A stretch of 64,000 bases of DNA, taken from positions 512,001-576,000 of the forward strand of contig JAVJNR010000004.1 in assembly GCA_040217195.1 (NCBI GenBank), read 5' to 3'. The stretch comes from Leptospiraceae bacterium (lineage in GTDB: Bacteria > Spirochaetota > Leptospiria > Leptospirales > Leptonemataceae). The stretch's first letter is position 1. The number at the start of each line of letters is the position of its first letter. Below the pieces are notes generated by a model. The model was not told the origin of the DNA. It saw only the letters and a program-made list of their open reading frames with translations, and did no database searches. Shown here piece by piece: positions 3,024-55,906 of this stretch. Position numbers and translations under genes: made by a program.

Positions 3024-3804
3024 CTCTTCTTCTGTTTTTGATCTTCCGGACATTGCACTGAGCGAAGTCGATTTTCTAGAATATCTGTTTCGTAGAGCCA
3101 GAGAACTGGACGCACTGGAACCTATTTTTCCAGGCATGGTATTCTATAATGTTCCGGCCTATTTAATGAAAAATCTATGGCCTGAAAAATTGGAGCAATG
3201 GAAAAAAGATCCGGAATTAATGGGCTTTGCTGCCAACGAATCAGGCTGGAAAGGCAAACTGGATAACCTGCAATCCAGGTTTAATACATTCAATCGAAAG
3301 GTCACCCTGCATAAGAACTTTGTGATGCATGGAAGGTACAGCATCGCACTTTGTGCGGCGATAGATGAGCAAGAGTTAAACACATCTGAAGTAGCCCTTT
3401 GCTGGATTTCACTGCAAGATCCGGAGATTGAGCTAATAAAAAGGGACGACCCGGCAAGCACCTTTGCCTATGCGAACCAGACTTTCAGCCACTACCGCAT
3501 GGAAGGGCAAATCAACTTGAAAAAGGACGATTTCAAACTAATCCCTGCATCCAGTTACAGACGATTTGGACCAGTTTTCATGATGCGAGAAGTGACCGGT
3601 CTGGGAGCCATTGCCCTGGGCCTACTTGCAGCCAATGGAATTCAACTGGAAGCCCGGCAGTATATTCAGCAGGCGGGCACCAATCGCCAGAATGGTCGAC
3701 CCAGAAAGGAGGATTTGCTTCTGGCTCGACAATACATTTCCCGCCTCTGCCAGGAAGTTTCCAGCAGACATGCACTCTGGGATCGAATGAATTCCCTGCC
3801 CTGA
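2986..3804 (+). CDS. Hypothetical protein
   Basis: Long ORF filling the gap between the GIY-YIG gene and a convergent gene; start uncertain (2950 or 2986). Confidence 0.6.
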   Translation: MQPGDGPSRPSDNSSSVFDLPDIALSEVDFLEYLFRRARELDALEPIFPGMVFYNVPAYLMKNLWPEKLEQWKKDPELMGFAANESGWKGKLDNLQSRFNTFNRKVTLHKNFVMHGRYSIALCAAIDEQELNTSEVALCWISLQDPEIELIKRDDPASTFAYANQTFSHYRMEGQINLKKDDFKLIPASSYRRFGPVFMMREVTGLGAIALGLLAANGIQLEARQYIQQAGTNRQNGRPRKEDLLLARQYISRLCQEVSSRHALWDRMNSLP

Positions 3805-3805
3805 A

Positions 3806-4462
3806 TTATTTGCGAGAGGCGCGAGCAATCTCAGAGATTGCATCGGATTCTAGAATATGAGTTCCCGGTTCGGTTTGCATGGCCATGCAACGAGCCACAT
3901 CCCTGGCCTGAATGCCACGGTACTTTCGCACCGGCCCAATTAGAAAAGGATTCAATACCCCGGCGGCCAGGGCCCCCAGGGATTCACCGGCACGGCTTTC
4001 CTTTCTGGGGCCCAGCAGCAAGCTGGGACGATAGATATGTAATGAAGAAAGGCCCAGACTCTGCAGATCCATTTCTAGTTTGCCCTTCACTCGATTGTAA
4101 TAGATGGAACTTCTATCGTTTGAACCCAGGGCTGTAATTACATGAAACGGTAGATCCTTTTTAACACATTTCCGGGCCAGATTCATTGGATAATGATAAT
4201 CCACCTGCTCGAAAGCTTCCCGACTACCGGCCTTCTTCATTGTAGTACCAAGACAGCAATAGACCGGACCCTGAAAATCTGGATACGACTCCTCGTTTTG
4301 GAAATCTATTGTCTGATACTGAATCCTGGAATTTGCAGAGGAATGCTCTTTACCGGAATCCCGAATCAGAGCCAGTACCGAATTCACATCCGATCTCTGG
4401 GCCAGCTCATTTAATAGAAATCGACCCACCAGGCCGGTACTTCCCGCTACATATACTTTCAT
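3806..4462 (-). CDS. NAD(P)-binding Rossmann oxidoreductase (TIP30/YraR-like)
   Basis: AGSTGLVG, CCLGTTMKKAGS, YNRVKG, YRPSLLLG. Confidence 0.9.
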   Translation of the reverse strand: MKVYVAGSTGLVGRFLLNELAQRSDVNSVLALIRDSGKEHSSANSRIQYQTIDFQNEESYPDFQGPVYCCLGTTMKKAGSREAFEQVDYHYPMNLARKCVKKDLPFHVITALGSNDRSSIYYNRVKGKLEMDLQSLGLSSLHIYRPSLLLGPRKESRAGESLGALAAGVLNPFLIGPVRKYRGIQARDVARCMAMQTEPGTHILESDAISEIARASRK

Positions 4463-4971
4463 TCATCCACCCTGCAAAGTCTCTGGATCAGTTCCCGGTG
4501 CTCGGGGAACTCAGATGCAAGAATATTCCTTTGTGCCAATTCGAAGTCTTCAAAATCAAAACCAGGGCTTACAGTACATCCTACCAGCGAATAGCCCAGA
4601 TCATTTGTTTCGGGGTCCGGTTCTGATGCAAACCAGGCTCCGGCTGGCACAACGGCCTGAAAAACACTCCTTCGCACATCGCTTCCCAGTCGATGACAAT
4701 GATAGCTTCCATCTGAAAGAATCTGATGAACCAGCAACGGATCGCCATAATAGAAATGCCACATTTCATCGCTTCTGATTCTATGGAATGCTGAGAATTC
4801 GCCGGCCGGAATTAGAAAATATATCCCAGTGCAGGATTGCCTGGGCCCATGGGCACCAATCAGAGAGCCTGGCACTTCCAGTTCGCTACGGTAGGTTTCT
4901 GCAAAATAGCCTCCCTCTGGATGAGGCTGCAGATTCAGGCTTTCTACAATTTCTTTAAGCTTTGCAGGCAT
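4459..4971 (-). CDS. Cupin DUF985 family protein
   Basis: LQPHPEGGYF, SAFHRIRSDEMWHFY.G, GCTVSPGFDFEDFEL. Confidence 0.92.
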   Translation of the reverse strand: MPAKLKEIVESLNLQPHPEGGYFAETYRSELEVPGSLIGAHGPRQSCTGIYFLIPAGEFSAFHRIRSDEMWHFYYGDPLLVHQILSDGSYHCHRLGSDVRRSVFQAVVPAGAWFASEPDPETNDLGYSLVGCTVSPGFDFEDFELAQRNILASEFPEHRELIQRLCRVDE

Positions 4972-5078
4972 GTAAAATCGCTTCAGATTTGATTGGTTAC
5001 TGAAATCAATGCAAGGTGGCCCGGATTCAATCGCTGGTATGGGGCGAATTGAAAAAACAGGCCCAGAGCCTTGCCGAT

Positions 5079-5687
5079 TCAGGTCTTTATGATGCCATTC
5101 AGTACCAGGTCAGTTAACAGGGCCACATCTTCCGGAAACTTAAGGTTTCCTTCCCTGAACCCTACCGCAATGCCGATGGCAATGGCTCGTAGAACAAAGG
5201 CCATCTTCTCTGGTTCCCGACGGCGGAAATCGCCGCTAATAATCCCGGCCTCATAGGCCGCTGCGATGGGCTGCACAGCTCCCTGTCCGGCTTTCTCAAA
5301 ATCTTCTACAATATCAACTCCGGACTCTCTTACTAGCTCGGAACGTTTGGTGATCAGTAAATCGAAATAGGTATGATTGCCGCCATAGAATTCGAAGAAT
5401 GCGATGGCCGCCGCCTTCAATCGATCTACCGGATTGGCTTCCTGCAGGCCACTCAGGGCTCGATCATAGCCTTCGTTGAGCTGCTGTAGCCCGCGGGTGA
5501 GCAAAGCAAGGTAAATCTCCGCTTTGTTCTTGTAATACAGATAAAGTGCAGGCCTGGATAGAGATACGGTGGCTGCAATATCTTCCATCGTGATCTCCTC
5601 ATAACCTTTCTGGGAGATCAATTGGCGGGCAGATTCCAGAATCTCCTGCTTTTTACGGATTCGGCTCTTTCGTTCCTTTACGGCCAT
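5079..5687 (-). CDS. TetR/AcrR family transcriptional regulator
   Basis: N-terminal HTH: GYEEITMEDIAATVSLSRPALYLYYKNK. Confidence 0.92.
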   Translation of the reverse strand: MAVKERKSRIRKKQEILESARQLISQKGYEEITMEDIAATVSLSRPALYLYYKNKAEIYLALLTRGLQQLNEGYDRALSGLQEANPVDRLKAAAIAFFEFYGGNHTYFDLLITKRSELVRESGVDIVEDFEKAGQGAVQPIAAAYEAGIISGDFRRREPEKMAFVLRAIAIGIAVGFREGNLKFPEDVALLTDLVLNGIIKT

Positions 5688-5726
5688 GGCGAGAATTGCA
5701 ATTTAATTACGAACTGCCTGTACAGC

Positions 5727-5757
5727 AAGAAGAAAGCCCTGGCGGAAACCAGGGCTA
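5727..5757 (-). terminator. Terminator after YceI-like gene
   Basis: Stem AGCCCTGG/CCAGGGCT followed by TTCTTCTT on the minus strand. Confidence 0.65.
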
Positions 5758-5789
5758 TTAGATCCTTCATCAGGACAAACTGTATAACA

Positions 5790-6416
5790 CTACTTACAGT
5801 CTGCGTTCAGGGAGGTCTTAAGCTTTATGTTCACATCCGGCCAGAGTTTGCTTACTTTATCCGGTCCTGTATGAAGGGCCTTGCAAACCTCATTCAGAGC
5901 CGCCAGAGGTCCGGAAGCGTCCCAGTTTCCCACATCCATGGTTCCGGTAAGGACAACACTTCGGCCATCCACAGAAAGCTCCACAGGAACTTCCCTGGAC
6001 TCGCCGTTCATGGAAAGCATGATTGTACCTGTATTCCCATCGATGGACTTCACGGATCCTTCCATTTTCTGGTCTTTCATTTTTCCAAAAAAGTGCTCTT
6101 TGATCTTCGCATCCCGTCCATCGTTTCCGGAATCAACGCTGGCTGTATCGATAGTGAATGTTGCATTTTTGAACACATCTAGCTGGCTGGATGCATTTTC
6201 AGTTCCCTGAATCTGGAAAGTATTGAATCCTCCGTCCACGCCAGCCTTTTCTGTAAATTTGTAAGCTGTCCAATGAACAGATGTGTTTTCAGCGTTGTAG
6301 GTAAAAGTGCAATCGTCGGTAAGCGGACCGCTCTGGTCATCCTGCTCGGGTGAGCAGTAGCTCAACATCCCTGCTGAAAGAAGCAAAGCTATACCCGAAA
6401 TAATGGTTCGTTTCAT
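5790..6416 (-). CDS. YceI-like lipid/polyisoprenoid-binding lipoprotein
   Basis: Lipobox LSYC; IDTASVDSGNDGRDAKI signature. Confidence 0.85.
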   Translation of the reverse strand: MKRTIISGIALLLSAGMLSYCSPEQDDQSGPLTDDCTFTYNAENTSVHWTAYKFTEKAGVDGGFNTFQIQGTENASSQLDVFKNATFTIDTASVDSGNDGRDAKIKEHFFGKMKDQKMEGSVKSIDGNTGTIMLSMNGESREVPVELSVDGRSVVLTGTMDVGNWDASGPLAALNEVCKALHTGPDKVSKLWPDVNIKLKTSLNADCK

Positions 6417-6438
6417 ATAATCCTCCAGATCAATTTTT

Positions 6439-6894
6439 CTATAATGAGTCAGCTACCTTTTCCTGACATTCTTCGCAGTATCCGTAGACCTCGAAAATGT
6501 GCGTCACTGGCTTAAAGTGGGCCTTATCCATCTGCTGCTTAAAGGCTCCGGAAACATCGCAGTGCTCCAGACAGAAGCTCTTATTGCAAGAAAGGCATAT
6601 TGCATGATGGTGATGATGCCTTCCCTGAAACTCGAACCGAGCAGATTCCCGGCTCTGGAGATTGATCTGGCCCACCAGCCCGGCCTCCGTAAGAGTGGAA
6701 AGGTTTCGGTACACAGTATCCAGGCTCACATGGGGATGCCTTTCTTTAATGGCAGCATGTATCTCCTGAACAGTAAGAGGACCTTCGCTTTCAATCACAG
6801 TTTCCAGGATTTCGATCCTCTGCGGAGTTAGCTTGTAGCCCAGATCTTTGATCTTCTGTAGCGAAAAGGCCAGTTGTGTTTGATGAGCGCTCAT
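6439..6894 (-). CDS. zur: Fur family regulator, probably Zur
   Basis: LTPQR, TVYRNL, HHHHHAICLSC, GYCEEC; adjacent to a ZnuABC-like operon. Confidence 0.8.
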   Translation of the reverse strand: MSAHQTQLAFSLQKIKDLGYKLTPQRIEILETVIESEGPLTVQEIHAAIKERHPHVSLDTVYRNLSTLTEAGLVGQINLQSRESARFEFQGRHHHHHAICLSCNKSFCLEHCDVSGAFKQQMDKAHFKPVTHIFEVYGYCEECQEKVADSL

Positions 6895-26396: not shown

Positions 26397-29102
26397 TCAA
26401 TTAGATCCTTGCTCCACCGCAGCAATGGCCGAGGCCAATCGCGCCACGGACACTCTAAAAGGGGAACAGCTAACATAATTCAAACCCAGACCATGAAAGA
26501 ACTTAATGGATGTTGGATCGCCACCATGCTCACCACAAACTCCCAGCTTAATAGCCGAACGAGTGCTTCTTCCTTTCTCCACTGCCATGCGAACCATGGC
26601 ACCTACGCCATCCTGATCAATGGATTGAAACGGATTTCGATCATAGATATTCAAGCGAAGGTATTCTCTAATGTAGGATTCAGCATCATCTCTGGAAAAG
26701 CCAAGAGTCATCTGAGTCAAATCGTTGGTCCCAAAACTGAAGAACTCCGCCTCCGCAGCAATTTCATCCGCGGTGGCAGCGGCTCTGGGAACCTCAATCA
26801 TGGTTCCAATCATGTATTCTACTTTTGTACCCTTTTCCTGAAAGACCTTCTGGGCTGTATCCTGGATAATCTTCTTTTGCATGGTTAGCTCATTGACCTT
26901 TCCCACAAGAGGTACCATGATTTCCGGACTCACATGAATTCCAGCAGATTGTGCTTCGCAGGCCGCTTCCAGAACGGCCCTAACCTGCATCTCCGTAATC
27001 TCCGGATAGGTTATTCCCAACCTGCAGCCGCGATGTCCCAGCATAGGATTCTGCTCATGCAAATCTTCGGCCCGACGTTTGATTAGATCCACATCAATAT
27101 TCAATGCAGAGGCAAGCTTCTTAAAATCAGCCTCTTCCCTGGGCAGAAATTCATGCAATGGAGGGTCCAGCAATCGGATAGTAACCGGAAAGCCATCCAT
27201 TGCTTCAAAGATTCCTCGAAAATCTTCCTTTTGATAGGGCAGGATTTTCGCCAGTGCTTGCTTTCGCTGTTCTACTGTGGAAGCAAGAATCATCTCCTGC
27301 ATGGCCAGAATTCGATCACCCTCAAAGAACATGTGTTCCGTGCGACAGAGCCCAATGCCTTCTGCACCGAACATCCGGGCCACGCGAGCATCCTTTGGAG
27401 TGTCCGCATTTGTGCGAATGCTCATTCGGCGGCTTTTATCGGCCCAGTCCATCATGCGTTTGAAGTTAGATGCGATTTCCGATTTTTCTGCATCTATTTC
27501 ACCGGCCAGAGCTTGCTGAATCTCGCTTTCCCTGGTTTTCATCAATCCAAGAATGACTTCGCCGGTGCCTCCATCTATGGAAAGCTCATCTTCTTCGCTT
27601 AATTCAATGGACTTGTTGTCCTGAGTGACGATGGTCATTATTCCTTTCTTTTCATCCACCCGCAGAGCGGAACATCCAACAATACAGGGCTTATTCATAC
27701 CTCGAGCTACCACCGCTGCATGGGATGTCATCCCTCCTCTGGAGGTTAGAATCCCTTCTGCCGCTTCCATTCCGGAAATGTCCTCCGGTGATGTCTCCGT
27801 TCGCACCAGAATACACTTCTTTCCTGCAGCTTTATGCTGGTGAGCCTTTTCGGAGCTAAATACTATCAGGCCGGAGGCAGCACCGGGGCCGGCATTCAAT
27901 CCCTTGCCCACGATTCTTCCCTGGGCTATGGCCTGAGACTTTTCTGCAGGGTCAAAGACCTGTGCCAGAAGAGAAGGCACAGATTCTGGATCAAGTCGAG
28001 TAATGGCTTTCTCTGGTTTTAGAACTCCTTCATCTACCATGTCGCATGCAATTTTGAGTGCAGCAAAACCGGTTCGCTTTCCGTTCCGGGTCTGTAAGAT
28101 GTATAACTTGCCCTGCTGTATGGTAAATTCAATATCCTGCATGTCCTGAAAGTGCCCTTCCAGTTTCTGCTGTATATCGATGAGCTGATCATAGACCTGG
28201 CGCTGATCTTTCTCCAGCTGAGCGATGGGCTGAGGAGTACGAATTCCAGCTACCACATCTTCGCCCTGGGCATTCATTAGATATTCTCCGTAGAACTTCT
28301 TTTCTCCGGTGGACGGATTACGGGTAAAGGCTACGCCTGTGCCCGAATCATCGCCCATATTTCCAAATACCATGGACTGTACGTTAACCGCCGTTCCCAG
28401 AGAATCCGGAATGGCATGCATGCGACGATAGTAGATGGCTCGTTCATTGTTCCAGGAATGGAATACAGCTTCTATGGCCTTTTCCAGTTGCTCCCAGGGA
28501 TCATCCGGGAAATCTGCGCCGGTTTCTTTTTTCACCAGCTTCCTGTACTCTTCTATGAGCTCCCTTAAGGCGCTGGCATCCAGCTCTGTATCCACGGCTG
28601 CGCCAGCCTTCTCTTTGTGTTCTTCCAGGATTTCTTCAAACAACTCATGTTTGATCCCCATTACAACATTTCCAAACATCTGGATAAAGCGACGATGGGA
28701 GTCCTCCACGAATCGGTCATTGCCTGTTTCCAGAGCCAGACCCTTCTTGGTTTCTTCATTCAGCCCCAGATTCAAGATTGTATCCATCATTCCTGGCATA
28801 CTGATTGGTGCTCCAGATCGCACCGATACCAGCAAAGGTTTATCGCCACTTCCAAAGTTGCGGCCGGTTTCCTTATTTACCTCTGACAATTTGGTTCGGA
28901 CTTCATCCATCAGCCCGTCTGGAAGTTTGCGAATTTCCGAATATTCATTGCAAACGGATGTGGGAATCACAAGGCCGGGAGGAACTGGAACTCCCAGAGC
29001 GGCCATTTTACACAGGTTCGCTCCTTTACCTCCCAGAGCGGACTTATCCGGTGAATTAACGTCGGTGCGTCCCTCTCCAAAAAAGAATACCCGTTTGCTC
29101 AT
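26397..29102 (-). CDS. ppdK: Pyruvate, phosphate dikinase
   Basis: LGGKGANL, SVRSGA, GGMTSHAAVVAR, GLCRTEHMF, SFGTNDLTQ, CGEHGGDP. Confidence 0.98.
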   Translation of the reverse strand: MSKRVFFFGEGRTDVNSPDKSALGGKGANLCKMAALGVPVPPGLVIPTSVCNEYSEIRKLPDGLMDEVRTKLSEVNKETGRNFGSGDKPLLVSVRSGAPISMPGMMDTILNLGLNEETKKGLALETGNDRFVEDSHRRFIQMFGNVVMGIKHELFEEILEEHKEKAGAAVDTELDASALRELIEEYRKLVKKETGADFPDDPWEQLEKAIEAVFHSWNNERAIYYRRMHAIPDSLGTAVNVQSMVFGNMGDDSGTGVAFTRNPSTGEKKFYGEYLMNAQGEDVVAGIRTPQPIAQLEKDQRQVYDQLIDIQQKLEGHFQDMQDIEFTIQQGKLYILQTRNGKRTGFAALKIACDMVDEGVLKPEKAITRLDPESVPSLLAQVFDPAEKSQAIAQGRIVGKGLNAGPGAASGLIVFSSEKAHQHKAAGKKCILVRTETSPEDISGMEAAEGILTSRGGMTSHAAVVARGMNKPCIVGCSALRVDEKKGIMTIVTQDNKSIELSEEDELSIDGGTGEVILGLMKTRESEIQQALAGEIDAEKSEIASNFKRMMDWADKSRRMSIRTNADTPKDARVARMFGAEGIGLCRTEHMFFEGDRILAMQEMILASTVEQRKQALAKILPYQKEDFRGIFEAMDGFPVTIRLLDPPLHEFLPREEADFKKLASALNIDVDLIKRRAEDLHEQNPMLGHRGCRLGITYPEITEMQVRAVLEAACEAQSAGIHVSPEIMVPLVGKVNELTMQKKIIQDTAQKVFQEKGTKVEYMIGTMIEVPRAAATADEIAAEAEFFSFGTNDLTQMTLGFSRDDAESYIREYLRLNIYDRNPFQSIDQDGVGAMVRMAVEKGRSTRSAIKLGVCGEHGGDPTSIKFFHGLGLNYVSCSPFRVSVARLASAIAAVEQGSN

Positions 29103-51762: not shown

Positions 51763-54300
51763 TTAGACGCCGGGTAGATCCATCTGCTTTAGATCCCTGC
51801 GCTGAAAGTAACCCACAGGTGCAGCATATTCCCAGACCTCGCGAAAAGCATCCAGTAACAGCTGATTATAATAGGCAATACTATAAGGAGGTTGTTTTCG
51901 GGGATCCGTTCCAAAGGATTGAAAGGCTATTTCTTCAGACATATATTTGGAAGCCCCTGGCTGGCCTTTCTCAAGCACAATATACTTCACTTTTTCTCCT
52001 GCCTGAACCTGAATCCCATAGGGCTCCAGTTCACGCAATGCAGCCGGTGCAGGACCATCTACGGCATAATCCTCCAGGCCCTTGCTCACGGTTCGCCTGA
52101 GTAGCAAATCGGTCCAGGGAATGCTTCTGCTGCTTAGCTCTTCTTTGAATTTGTTATAGATTTCTTCCATCTCTGAATGCATGGACTTCAATTCTTCTGC
52201 ACTCCTGCAAAGGGCCATTTTATCCAGAAAAGCCTCCTGAACAGTCTTGATCCAGGAGGGTCTATCCTTCCTTCTAACTGAAATACCACGGATGCGCAAA
52301 CTGCCATCCCGGAATCTACCAAAATAGCGATTCACTACTTCCACTCCAGGCTTTGAGCGGGAAGGTAGAAAAATCACCCAGTCATAGATGCCCTCCACGC
52401 TCATCTCGATTTCAGTGGCTGCTCCAATCTCTTCGCATACCTTCTCCAGTTCCTGCAGTTCGGATGCCTCCCGCTTTTCTTTTGACTCGACGATCTGAGT
52501 CGGACGATTCGAGTCATTGTCCGGAAGTTTGAGAAATAGGCAGTCTGTAATTCCATGAACTACGCTGTAATTCCATTCCTCTGCAATCTCCTTGGCATTG
52601 AGTAACTTATCTCGCCCAAATGCAGTAACCGCCTCATGGCTTTCGATCTTACCAAATTTAGCATTCCTGTAGCCAAGGTATCCGAAGGAGGTCACCAGCA
52701 TCCACTTCAGGCTTGATTGACGATGATCGTACATCTCCTTCTCTTCTTCCAGAGATTTCAGCTTCTGATCTCTTTCAGTCTCAGAATTTACATGCGAATC
52801 ACCTGAGTCCGGAATCCACTTTTTTATTTTCTCTATGGACCGGTTTAACTCTTTAATTCTGAGTTTATAGTGCTTTCTTCGCTTTAGAATGTGAGCCAGA
52901 GCGTCGGATACAATACCGCGTCGCCTTTTGCAGATTCGAAAATTAATCTCCGGAACATGCTCGGTTTCTTCATCGGAACAACAGCGACAGTTGATTGTTT
53001 CAGGAGATACGTTGTGAATACTCATTATTGAAGGATACATCTGGGAAAAATCGATCTGAGCCACGTTCTCCAGAATTCGACCTGCACGTGGAACAAATAC
53101 CAGCCCTCCTTTATCTGCCTCCAGAAGATCCATCACCGTACGTGGCTCCTCCAGGGCACTTTTCTGCCAGGGAACCAGATAGTTTTTCCGTAGAGCCACT
53201 TCACATTCAATGGCCGTTAGCGCAGCCCCGGTGGAAGATCTGGATAATCTTTGCACTGGAATTCGACTCATTCTGGATAGTTCAACAATGCCCATGAGTT
53301 GCGCTTCTTTGTATACGAAGGAATTCGCACTGTCTATGTGCCAGCGCCCAAATAGCGGATAGGAAGGAGCGAGAAAGATCCAGTTTCCATAGGTATTGTA
53401 GCTGGTTCCTTCGGTAACTATCTTTCTGCTGGATCCAGGAGCGACGTCCCGGTCCAGAAACGATGGAATACCATACTTCTGATAGGCCTGAAAGAGCACC
53501 GGAAAAAGCACCTGGTCGCCGTAGGCAGAAAGAATTATATCCGGGTCCAGGGTGTTCAGGTAGTCATTCAATGCTTCCAGTTCCCCGGGTCCTGGAGGCA
53601 CCGGCAAATCCAGACGCCTGCCCTGACATTCCAGCTGGATGCGCTGATCCGGAACATGAAATCTTTTGTGGGCACCTCTGGATAATAATTGCTGATGCGT
53701 AAGTCGATGGCCATAGTTCAGCTGCATTCTTAGTATGCGAACCGAAGGTAGCTGAAAATTCAGATCAAAAATATCATCCAGTGCCTGAATCCACTCCAGA
53801 TTATGAACAACCGGTGCCTGGCCAGCATTTCGCGTACCGGAAGACGCAAAACTGAGGCAGGCCCTCAGTCTACAAAGAGGAAATATTCCCTTTTGCTGCA
53901 TATAGCCAGTGGGAACCTCAAAGTCTGTGTGAAAAAGGTCCATGCGACCGTACATTGCATACAGTCGGTTTCTGATTTTTCGAAGCAAAGAAGGCCTGCT
54001 AATGCGAAGCTCCAGAACATCCACCATACGGTTCTCATAGAAAAGCTTTCTTTGCACATACACTGGATCTGAATGCAGTCCATCCATTTCATGTAATCGT
54101 TGCACCAGTTTCTGAAGTGTCTTTTCCGGGGCTCGGGCATATATAACAGGATTGAAATGATCCCTGCAGAGATAAAACCTTCCCTGTTCATCCAGAATAC
54201 ATAGATAAATCTGATCTTCCAGGTGGTAGATATCGAAAAGCCATCCGCGAACTGCGATCTGCCCTTTTTCGGAAGCGGTTGAGTGAGGGGAGCTATCCAT
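51763..54300 (-). CDS. Family B DNA polymerase, PolB2 (Dpo2-like) subgroup
   Basis: DFSQMYPSIM (motif A), LKWMLVTSFGYLGY (motif B), HGITDC (motif C variant), NRYFG; degenerate exonuclease region; CRCC..IC insert. Confidence 0.88.
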   Translation of the reverse strand: MDSSPHSTASEKGQIAVRGWLFDIYHLEDQIYLCILDEQGRFYLCRDHFNPVIYARAPEKTLQKLVQRLHEMDGLHSDPVYVQRKLFYENRMVDVLELRISRPSLLRKIRNRLYAMYGRMDLFHTDFEVPTGYMQQKGIFPLCRLRACLSFASSGTRNAGQAPVVHNLEWIQALDDIFDLNFQLPSVRILRMQLNYGHRLTHQQLLSRGAHKRFHVPDQRIQLECQGRRLDLPVPPGPGELEALNDYLNTLDPDIILSAYGDQVLFPVLFQAYQKYGIPSFLDRDVAPGSSRKIVTEGTSYNTYGNWIFLAPSYPLFGRWHIDSANSFVYKEAQLMGIVELSRMSRIPVQRLSRSSTGAALTAIECEVALRKNYLVPWQKSALEEPRTVMDLLEADKGGLVFVPRAGRILENVAQIDFSQMYPSIMSIHNVSPETINCRCCSDEETEHVPEINFRICKRRRGIVSDALAHILKRRKHYKLRIKELNRSIEKIKKWIPDSGDSHVNSETERDQKLKSLEEEKEMYDHRQSSLKWMLVTSFGYLGYRNAKFGKIESHEAVTAFGRDKLLNAKEIAEEWNYSVVHGITDCLFLKLPDNDSNRPTQIVESKEKREASELQELEKVCEEIGAATEIEMSVEGIYDWVIFLPSRSKPGVEVVNRYFGRFRDGSLRIRGISVRRKDRPSWIKTVQEAFLDKMALCRSAEELKSMHSEMEEIYNKFKEELSSRSIPWTDLLLRRTVSKGLEDYAVDGPAPAALRELEPYGIQVQAGEKVKYIVLEKGQPGASKYMSEEIAFQSFGTDPRKQPPYSIAYYNQLLLDAFREVWEYAAPVGYFQRRDLKQMDLPGV

Positions 54301-54404
54301 GATTCTTCTTGCCGCAATCTCTCTGCAATCGGAAGGCTTTGACTGCAGACCGGGACAGGGAAGGCCTAAAGACCTAAGTCTTAGTTTTTGCTCTTACGTG
54401 CATT

Positions 54405-54695
54405 TCAGGATCTACCCGCATCGGAAGAAGGGCTTTCTCTCTCTTTTTCCAGAGCTTCTACTCGACGCTGCAGAGAGACTATTTCTTTATGCATTTCAAT
54501 CATCATACACATGGCCATGGAATCAAATGGATTGGGCTGGGCTGCCATGACTCCCACCTGCAACTGTGATCTTGCAGAAATCATTAATGCGTCAAAAGAC
54601 ATCCGATCTTCTTTTCGCAGAGCCTTTCTAAATTTACTGAAACGTTCATAGACACTGTCCACCAGGTTTGAATATGGCTGTAGAGTTCTTCCCAT
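54405..54695 (-). CDS. Small helical PolB2-associated protein
   Basis: MGRT..P...FRKALRKEDR..FD.L...AR signature; AGGAG SD; position between RadA-like and PolB2 genes. Confidence 0.8.
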   Translation of the reverse strand: MGRTLQPYSNLVDSVYERFSKFRKALRKEDRMSFDALMISARSQLQVGVMAAQPNPFDSMAMCMMIEMHKEIVSLQRRVEALEKERESPSSDAGRS

Positions 54696-54718
54696 AAGCT
54701 TCTCCTTTGCAAAAAAGG

Positions 54719-55420
54719 TTACACTGAAACAATCCTGGATCTCTCAATTTCGGATTCTGGCAGTACATCCTTCGCATAAAAAGGAATTGTACGATTTCGC
54801 TGCAAATTCATATCCCTAAGTACAAGTGGTCGGTCTTTTTTACGCTTCTGTTTTTCTCTCGTAGAAGGAAGAGCATCCAGTTGCCATTGATATTCGGTCA
54901 GAGTACTGAATGCAGAAATCGCTCCTCCAAACAGTTTGCTCTTATACGAACCTGTTTCCACAATCAGATAGGGAATGCCCGCCTCATTCCATAAAGAAAG
55001 TACTGAAGCCAGCTTCTTAAGTAAGAATCCAGCCTCTTCCTCCTGCACGTCTCCATCAAAGAACTGCTTACAGGGTGCGAAGATAAAATACAAAGAGGGA
55101 TTAGAGCTTCGCCTTTCTTTATGCCATACAGACCAGAACAGATCCAGGATCTGGTAAGGAGTAAAGGCACGTTGAACCATAATAGATTTTAGCATCTCTT
55201 CGCCAGGAATCTCTCTGCGAAGTGCTTCATCCATAAGCTGGAATGCATTGAATCGAATGGAACAGTCTATATTAAAGATGCGATAACCACTCTGCCAGAG
55301 ATGAACCTGCAATATATGACTGAGCGGGAAAATCGGCGATGCACCGTACAGAAGTGCAGGCGAACGACGATCCCAGAAATGGGTAGACTGAACCGATTCA
55401 ACCAGAAGGTGAGACTCCAT
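54719..55420 (-). CDS. Inactivated RecA/RadA-like P-loop ATPase (ImuA-analogous)
   Basis: Degenerate Walker A (LLYGASP); IDCSIRFNAFQL; IMVQRAFTPYQILD; likely start ATG 55420 rather than 55459. Confidence 0.72.
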   Translation of the reverse strand: MESHLLVESVQSTHFWDRRSPALLYGASPIFPLSHILQVHLWQSGYRIFNIDCSIRFNAFQLMDEALRREIPGEEMLKSIMVQRAFTPYQILDLFWSVWHKERRSSNPSLYFIFAPCKQFFDGDVQEEEAGFLLKKLASVLSLWNEAGIPYLIVETGSYKSKLFGGAISAFSTLTEYQWQLDALPSTREKQKRKKDRPLVLRDMNLQRNRTIPFYAKDVLPESEIERSRIVSV

Positions 55421-55447
55421 ACTGGGAATCTCGACAACATGCCGTCT

Positions 55448-55460
55448 TTTGTAAAGCATA
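55448..55460 (-). promoter_or_regulatory. Candidate LexA (SOS) box
   Basis: TTTG-TAAAG-CATA, one mismatch to the Leptospira TTTG-N5-CAAA box, about 28 bp upstream of the cassette. Confidence 0.55.
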
Positions 55461-55639
55461 TATATGACGGCATATCGGTTTTAATGCTCCGGATCGCCAC
55501 TTCCCCGGAAGAAGCCAGCCGCAACTGTCCAGCCAGGTGCTCTGGCACGATGTGCTAGAGCACAGAATTATGGCACATCGCCCTACCTGGCTTCCTCAAA
55601 TTGAAGTATTCTCGATAGAATGGAGGCTCCTCCGGCCGG

Positions 55640-55893
55640 ATTAGCTCGTAACCGCCTTCCTGATGTGAAGCGAGGGTAGATTATGTCTCATTGAGGCTTC
55701 TAATGCGACAACCGGGAAGATTATGTCCCATTGTGCGGCCCCATCCGACATGGAGCCAGATTATGTCGCATTCGCTGACTCAATTTGAATTCCGGCTACA
55801 TTATGCCTCATCGAGCAGACCCTATGCGAAACAGCAACGAATTATGTCGCATTAGGCGGTCCCATGTATGACAGCGGCAAATCATGTCACAAT
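55640..55893. repeat. Non-coding array with 40-bp period: ATTATGTCGCATT-N9-AATGCGACA-N9
   Basis: 13-mer copies start at 55680, 55720, 55760, 55800, 55841, 55881; degenerate in-phase copy at 55640; out-of-phase copy at 55567. Confidence 0.9.
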
Positions 55894-55897
55894 TGTA

Positions 55898-55906
55898 TGC
55901 TATAAT
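55898..55906 (+). promoter_or_regulatory. Extended -10 promoter element
   Basis: TG-C-TATAAT immediately after the last array copy. Confidence 0.6.

Follow-up and report, generated by a model that had tools for sequence, protein, structure and literature searches.

The window analyzed in the present work, a stretch of 64,000 nucleotides from a Leptospiraceae bacterium (contig JAVJNR010000004.1, positions 512,001 to 576,000), harbors at positions 51763..55420 three co-oriented genes, coding for an inactive RadA-like protein (iRadA), the small protein PPB2, and a family-B DNA polymerase of the PolB2 group; the open reading frame (ORF) listing of the window bears out this arrangement, which had been put forward in a preliminary description of the same DNA. 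The iRadA-PPB2-PolB2 operon is likely to encode a LexA-repressed polymerase complex, devoid of proofreading, whose predicted task after DNA damage is the elongation of primers with mismatched ends or with ends stalled at lesions. The genes are separated by 23 nt (iRadA-PPB2) and 104 nt (PPB2-PolB2), and a search for terminator-like sites revealed none in either interval, the one hairpin lying within the polymerase gene. The ORF listing opens iRadA at 55459; the better start is the one originally proposed at 55420, because the frame from the upstream ATG runs into a stop in a same-genus locus (L004) and because the spacing between promoter and ATG is identical in the window and in 5/5 same-genus loci. 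An Rfam search gave no match. The coordinates of all the features are listed in Table 1.

Table 1. Features of the cassette and of its upstream region (positions of the window)
Feature	Position	Strand	Remarks
iRadA	55420-54719	-	233 aa; reading frame open from 55459
PPB2 (arCOG07300-like)	54695-54405	-	96 aa; N-terminal MGRT arm; AAGGAG upstream
PolB2 family-B DNA polymerase	54300-51763	-	845 aa; ITD in motif C; decayed exonuclease; CxCC..C cluster
Predicted sigma70 promoter	55427..55455	-	-35 TTTACA, 17 nt, weak -10 GAGATT; read from sequence
Two predicted LexA boxes, 15 bp apart	55441-55456 + 55456-55471	-	recA-trained matrix
QMDLP, candidate non-canonical beta-clamp-binding motif	51772..51786	-	polymerase residues 839-843, C-terminal
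Six copies of the order-wide ATTATGTCnCAT motif, 40-bp spaced	55680..55893	+	adjacent, outside the cassette
PafBC-type promoter element TGTCAC-N10-TATAAT	55885..55906	+	adjacent, faces away from the cassette

All the polymerase features listed in the preliminary description are present in the protein: motif B reads K532WMLVTSFG, motif C H582GITDC, and the cysteine cluster C438RCC...C457, while motif A is D417FSQMYP. Considering D417 together with ITD584-586, the first aspartate of the DxD signature is replaced, and both the motif A aspartate and the second aspartate are kept. The degenerate exonuclease region was confirmed as well, since the acidic ExoI, ExoII and ExoIII motifs of E. coli Pol II are not kept in the alignment between the two enzymes (which is loose at ExoI). 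Among the best 120 of the 914 listed homologues, the motif A aspartate was found in 120/120, the HxxTD pattern in 114, the CxCC..C cluster in 101, and GDTD in none; the insert in the fingers, also noticed previously, is 49 aa long, the median being 17 over the 101 proteins measured out of these 120, and is lineage-variable. Residues D283-R284, invariant in 9/9 sequences, may be the counterpart of DK253-254 of Sulfolobus islandicus, a candidate for the conserved D(K/R) loop motif that in group 1a operons is expected to contact the PPB2 arm.

The protein matches PF00136 (E 9.6e-33), its best NCBIfam match is NF004416, an archaeal-type "type B" model (E 9.4e-104, below the cut-off of the model), and the NCBIfam Pol II models match at E 1.9e-12 or weaker. 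The best solved relatives are Thermococcales PolB enzymes. Since C441 and C457 are aligned with two cysteines of that archaeal polymerase, which we take to be those of its disulfide, the CxCC..C cluster appears to extend an old feature; that it binds a metal is a guess. In a quick tree of 25 rows (built without PolB1 and PolB3; row L030 was empty and was dropped), the window polymerase is placed inside the Leptospirales homologues (support 98), sister to the PolB2 of a Haloplanus plasmid (support 99). E. coli Pol II, three phage PolBs and the four Pol II-like proteins from host-family genomes are placed separately from it. The haloarchaeal protein and the window polymerase have the KW..V..FG and HGI.D signatures in common. 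The polymerase is thus a member of the PolB2 group, as previously proposed.

The Pol II-like proteins of the host family (L181-L184, from genomes G024, G017, G011 and G016) end in QLSLF. As a separate observation, a cyanobacterial plasmid (NZ_CP097481.1) carries dnaN, dnaX and holA together with a gene for a short PolB whose C-terminus is QLSLF, resembling a plasmid-borne replisome module.

The two partners of the polymerase were also assigned as the preliminary description had suggested. iRadA lacks the GKT of Walker A (the first strand is followed by a loop with the sequence LLYGASPIF) and harbors RAFTPYQ, whose R-F-T-P-Y-Q residues are invariant in 78/78 aligned homologues. A profile of 78 of the 94 sequences retrieved, among the matches shown, RadA/DMC1 chains only, and weakly (best E 0.028); the AlphaFold2 model (predicted local distance difference test score 87.6) matches RadA/RAD51/DMC1 folds with a best E of 1.4e-10 and a TMq of about 0.55-0.63, RAD51-paralog capping complexes being among these matches. 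Pfam and NCBIfam gave nothing significant for either iRadA or PPB2, and the hhalign comparison of iRadA to RecA was not significant; because no Pfam Rad51/RecA match was retrieved for any of the 78 members, the assignment of iRadA rests on the profile and on the fold. The Atlas clusters carrying Rad51 on 13-14% of their members are a lead only. iRadA thus has the RadA/Rad51 fold without the N-terminal domain and without Walker A, and is predicted to be catalytically dead. PPB2 starts with the MGRT motif defined in PMC11791011, keeps Arg3 and has a serine at position 9.

The polymerase was found in 30 of the 41 related genomes searched; within 1.5 kb flanks, all three genes are present in 23 of these 30 loci and a PPB2 homologue in 27, so the cassette is not a chance assembly. 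Its closest named relatives are Leptospirales metagenome-assembled genomes (67-75% identity), titled Leptonemataceae (two), Leptospiraceae or Spirochaetaceae. The cassette is real and correctly identified, and it is already known: the novelty implied by the preliminary description did not hold, since bacterial operons in this order, their clamp motifs and spirochaete examples are contained in Timinskas, Timinskas and Venclovas 2025 (PMC11791011) and its supplements. That work describes one transfer from archaea to bacteria, a gene order (iRadA-PPB2-PolB2) that is fixed in bacteria, an enrichment of lexA, a pentamer model and beta-clamp motifs; spirochaetes are not named in the main text as available, and "spirochaet" gives 419 matches in supplementary file 1. 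Its group-1a rows include two same-genus proteins, MBU45172.1 and MCB1169244.1; both have HGITDCLFL exactly as in the window polymerase, and their cells for the clamp motif are empty. Supplementary file 2 holds a Leptospira pentamer model (interface predicted TM score 0.87) and a Leptonema model with the beta-clamp (ranking score 0.66); the polymerase of the modeled Leptospira orthologue starts like P0032, which is 45% identical to the window polymerase. A bacterial PolB2 operon with lexA had been noted earlier by Makarova, Krupovic and Koonin 2014 (PMC4104785).

The window cassette shares with the group 1a operons the gene order, the ITD of motif C, the dead exonuclease, the MGRT arm and the RadA-fold partner. 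It differs in its lineage-specific inserts, in having QxxLP rather than QxxLF at the end of the polymerase, and in its neighborhood: no lexA, SRAP or DUF72-type gene was seen adjoining it, lexA and SRAP being located on other contigs. The LexA of the genome is encoded at G000:C3:52725-53345.

The -35 hexamer, the spacing and the A2/T6 positions of the predicted promoter upstream of iRadA are kept in 5/5 same-genus loci, one of which has a single change in the -35; a consensus promoter scan did not detect this promoter. The transcript would probably be leaderless, starting at the ATG at 55420. The LexA1 consensus of L. interrogans, CTnnACnnnnGTnnAG (PMC4756842), matches perfectly over the -35 of recA in 7/7 genomes of the genus, and a symmetric matrix was built from 20 distinct recA boxes. 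With this matrix, the pair of boxes at the cassette scores 12.2 bits, and only two of the 3896 other upstream regions, those of lexA and of an unassigned gene, score higher; the ten best pairs of the genome at 15 bp include those of lexA and recN. The two best matrix sites are exactly 15 bp apart in 16 of the 23 cassette promoters compared to 28 of the 3896 background regions, and a pair score of at least 8 is reached at offset 15 in 20/23 cassettes and at offsets 13, 14, 16, 17 and 18 in 0-1. The tandem boxes lying over the promoter in 16 of the 23 cassettes support SOS control, and from the sequence we regard LexA as quite probably the repressor of the cassette. No description of the tandem LexA-like operator was found in the available text of PMC11791011.

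Two other candidate operators were discarded: the cassette, lexA and recA all lack the older SOS box of Leptospira, TTTG-N5-CAAA, and the dyad CCGTC-N19-GACGG, unique in the genome, has a broken right arm in one relative and is better described as two overlapping boxes. Besides, the genome codes for a second LexA-type helix-turn-helix (HTH) protein (G000:C6:159-788), and its top single LexA-like palindrome lies upstream of a 901-aa gene at window positions 26397-29102 (G000:C1:541190 region), whose product presumably resembles pyruvate phosphate dikinase.

The preliminary description had also compared the C-terminal QMDLPG of the polymerase to a bacterial beta-clamp-binding motif. Among the best 120 homologues, the last 32 residues contain QxxLF in 24 (compared to 17 of 2725 internal windows), QxxLP in 28 and QxxLW in 6, and the same-genus protein P0007 has QGDLF at the position of QMDLP. 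By its position, QMDLP appears to occupy the site that bears a clamp-type motif in the family; its sequence is non-canonical, and the published hidden Markov model (HMM) scored no clamp motif in the same-genus orthologues (PMC11791011, supplement). QMDLP may plausibly be a weak variant of the motif, making a putative contact with the clamp; the DnaN of the genome is encoded at G000:C2:76618-77733.

According to these data, the following scenario can be depicted. RecA-triggered cleavage of LexA would derepress the promoter; the proteins would assemble as in the published models of orthologues, with three copies of PPB2 for one each of PolB2 and iRadA, and the tail of the polymerase may bind the beta-clamp weakly. 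DinB, which is the sole Y-family enzyme detected in this genome, would insert a nucleotide opposite the lesion and PolB2 would then extend the primer, as Sulfolobus Dpo2 does in vitro. The Dpo2 of Sulfolobus islandicus, an active, exonuclease-free mismatch extender (PMC8764526; see also PMC7390963), is the only member of the PolB2 group known to have been characterized biochemically. It has in common with the window polymerase the group, the replacement of the first aspartate of DxD and, by description, the absence of proofreading; it differs in being archaeal, in using a PCNA-type clamp and in its Orc1-type regulation.

The analogy with ImuA-ImuB-DnaE2, suggested in the preliminary description, is one of proposed function and not of membership. 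Like that mutasome and Pol V, with which the PolB2 mutasome is compared in PMC11791011, the cassette would combine a damage-induced polymerase, a RecA-family subunit and a clamp contact; unlike them, its catalytic subunit belongs to the B family, with no Y-family or C-family part. Thus, it may work like Pol V or ImuABC, belonging to neither. In the genome (93.7% complete), dnaE, PolB and Y-family genes were found once each, the last being typed as Pol IV, and no DnaE2, ImuB, UmuC, Pol II or Pol II-like polymerase was found; on the basis of this set, the cassette is the best candidate of the genome for inducible mutagenesis. As far as the sequence allows, the idea of a damage-inducible mutasome is supported.

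Several points weigh against this interpretation. The single site at 55441-55456 has a modest score (8.0 bits, rank 120 of 3902), background maxima at other offsets reach 15.0, and the 15-bp offset was picked after viewing the cassettes, in related genomes that are not independent; the left half of the box is the -35 hexamer, so part of its conservation is conservation of the promoter, and the box pair is missing from most recA and lexA promoters of the relatives. No polymerase match was retrieved in 11 of the 41 relatives, and the operon is therefore dispensable. The QMDLP-type motif went unscored by the published HMM in close orthologues. The tree, besides being a quick version lacking PolB1 and PolB3 references, contains long branches, as the tool itself warned. 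Finally, no data on activity, expression or mutagenesis were found in the literature for any bacterial PolB2.

The complex might be induced by damage and be mainly non-mutagenic, acting as a gap-filling or fork-restart polymerase, or as a scaffold whose iRadA would modulate or cap the filaments of RecA. Dpo2 shows high fidelity on undamaged DNA and inserts poorly opposite lesions (PMC8764526), roles in fork elimination or regulation were proposed by Makarova 2014 (PMC4104785), and the RAD51-paralog capping complexes among the fold matches of iRadA point in the same direction; however, the proofreading motifs of the polymerase are lost and the published models dock iRadA on PolB2 (PMC11791011), and we consider this alternative unlikely compared to a LexA-repressed extender.

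A second alternative concerns the regulator, and arises from two features lying within 470 bp upstream of the cassette: the array of ATTATGTCnCAT repeats, a copy of which is found upstream in 5/5 same-genus loci, and the PafBC-type element, which coincides with the last repeat of the array. The motif (GG)ATTATGTCnCAT(T) occurs in 44 exact copies in the genome, compared to about one expected; 34 of them lie outside called ORFs, and copies are sometimes organized in arrays with a 30-40 bp period. They are found near fliF, fliG, fliO, dnaA, parB, dnaX, nrdJ, lexA, recX, rpsB/D/L and groES, and the motif is present in 41/41 Leptospirales genomes (0-3 for the reversed control). The number of copies, their flagellar, ribosomal, replication and metabolic neighbors and their presence in all 41 genomes rule out the array as a cassette-specific operator; ATTATGTCnCAT is probably the site of a global regulator. 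Control of the operon by a factor binding these repeats, or by a PafBC-like activator, instead of LexA, is very unlikely: the repeats adjoin many housekeeping genes and vary in copy number and distance, the PafBC-type element at spacing 10 is found in the sense orientation in none of the 23 cassette promoters, and that of the window faces away from the genes.

The last alternative, that the polymerase is Pol II or a phage replicative enzyme and its neighbors are unrelated to it, has close homologues in four Leptospira phage records (41-43% identity) in its favor and is nearly untenable, being largely refuted already by the tree and by the published PolB2 table: the single phage record inspected has the same three genes, true Pol II and phage PolBs form a separate clade in which four of seven reference rows show GDTD (none of the 120 homologues does), and the flanks of the cassette in the window are housekeeping genes. 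The inspected record, of a Leptospira LE1-like phage (KF114879.1), holds the entire cassette at 3183-6439, and a second copy in the chromosomal assembly of another genome (G027) groups with the phage copy.

The element next to the array led to a second set of observations. In intergenic regions, TGTCAC-Nn-TAnnnT peaks at n=10, with 11 sites compared to 0-3 at n=5-9 and 11-18. Five of these sites lie before recA, recC, recJ, rmuC and ogt, one before a cytosine methylase gene (dcm) and one before a gene for a RibD_C protein; the remaining four, including that of the window, have no assigned target. Looser TGTCAC-type matches precede sbcD and recX. The distance from the start of the motif to the start codon is often 28 bp (leaderless), and the element is present in 18 of the 24 recA promoters of the host family and in none of the six of a second family. 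The geometry of its spacing equals that of the PafBC consensus, tGTCgg(N10)tA(N3)T (PMC8635444). The genome also harbors a tandem HTH-WYL pair (G000:C4:338777-340865), located before a xerC-like gene, whose best PDB matches are PafB (7p5x_AY, E 1.1e-6) and PafC (7p5x_AX, E 2.6e-27) and in which both base-reading arginines of the recognition helices are aligned. The helix pattern was found in 20 of the 22 host-family loci (19 with both arginines), compared to one loose match in the eight second-family loci (1.5 kb flanks).

Two results count against a PafBC regulon: the whole-genome counts of the element do not exceed those of the reversed-pattern control (14 vs. 34 in the genome of the window), and PafC-like HTH matches occur also in 15 of 16 second-family genomes. 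The mycobacterial regulon (PMC8635444) has the same tandem HTH-WYL genes, the same TGTC-N12-TAnnnT geometry, and a recA carrying both a LexA box and the element; here, the host is a spirochaete, the motif is TGTCAC instead of TGTCGG, the sites are far fewer, and the pair precedes a xerC-like gene. We did not find PafBC described in spirochaetes in the literature; outside Actinobacteria, pafBC has been noted in Myxococcus (PMC9705874). The pair and the element are thus a candidate for a second damage regulon of the mycobacterial type. We lean slightly towards a damage response split as in mycobacteria, in which the LexA tandem operator would gate the PolB2 mutasome and PafBC would activate recA, recC, recJ, rmuC and ogt via sigma adaptation.

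As for its meaning, the cassette extends an already published family by one genome. Free-living Leptospirales carry the operon with a predicted SOS operator, and no other mutasome was found in the genome of the window. What is added here is the predicted tandem LexA-like operator, whose value is modest, and the PafBC-type lead appears the more interesting of the two. This side finding supplies a ready list of candidate promoters and, if true, would represent a PafBC regulon in Spirochaetota, extending sigma adaptation well beyond Actinobacteria.

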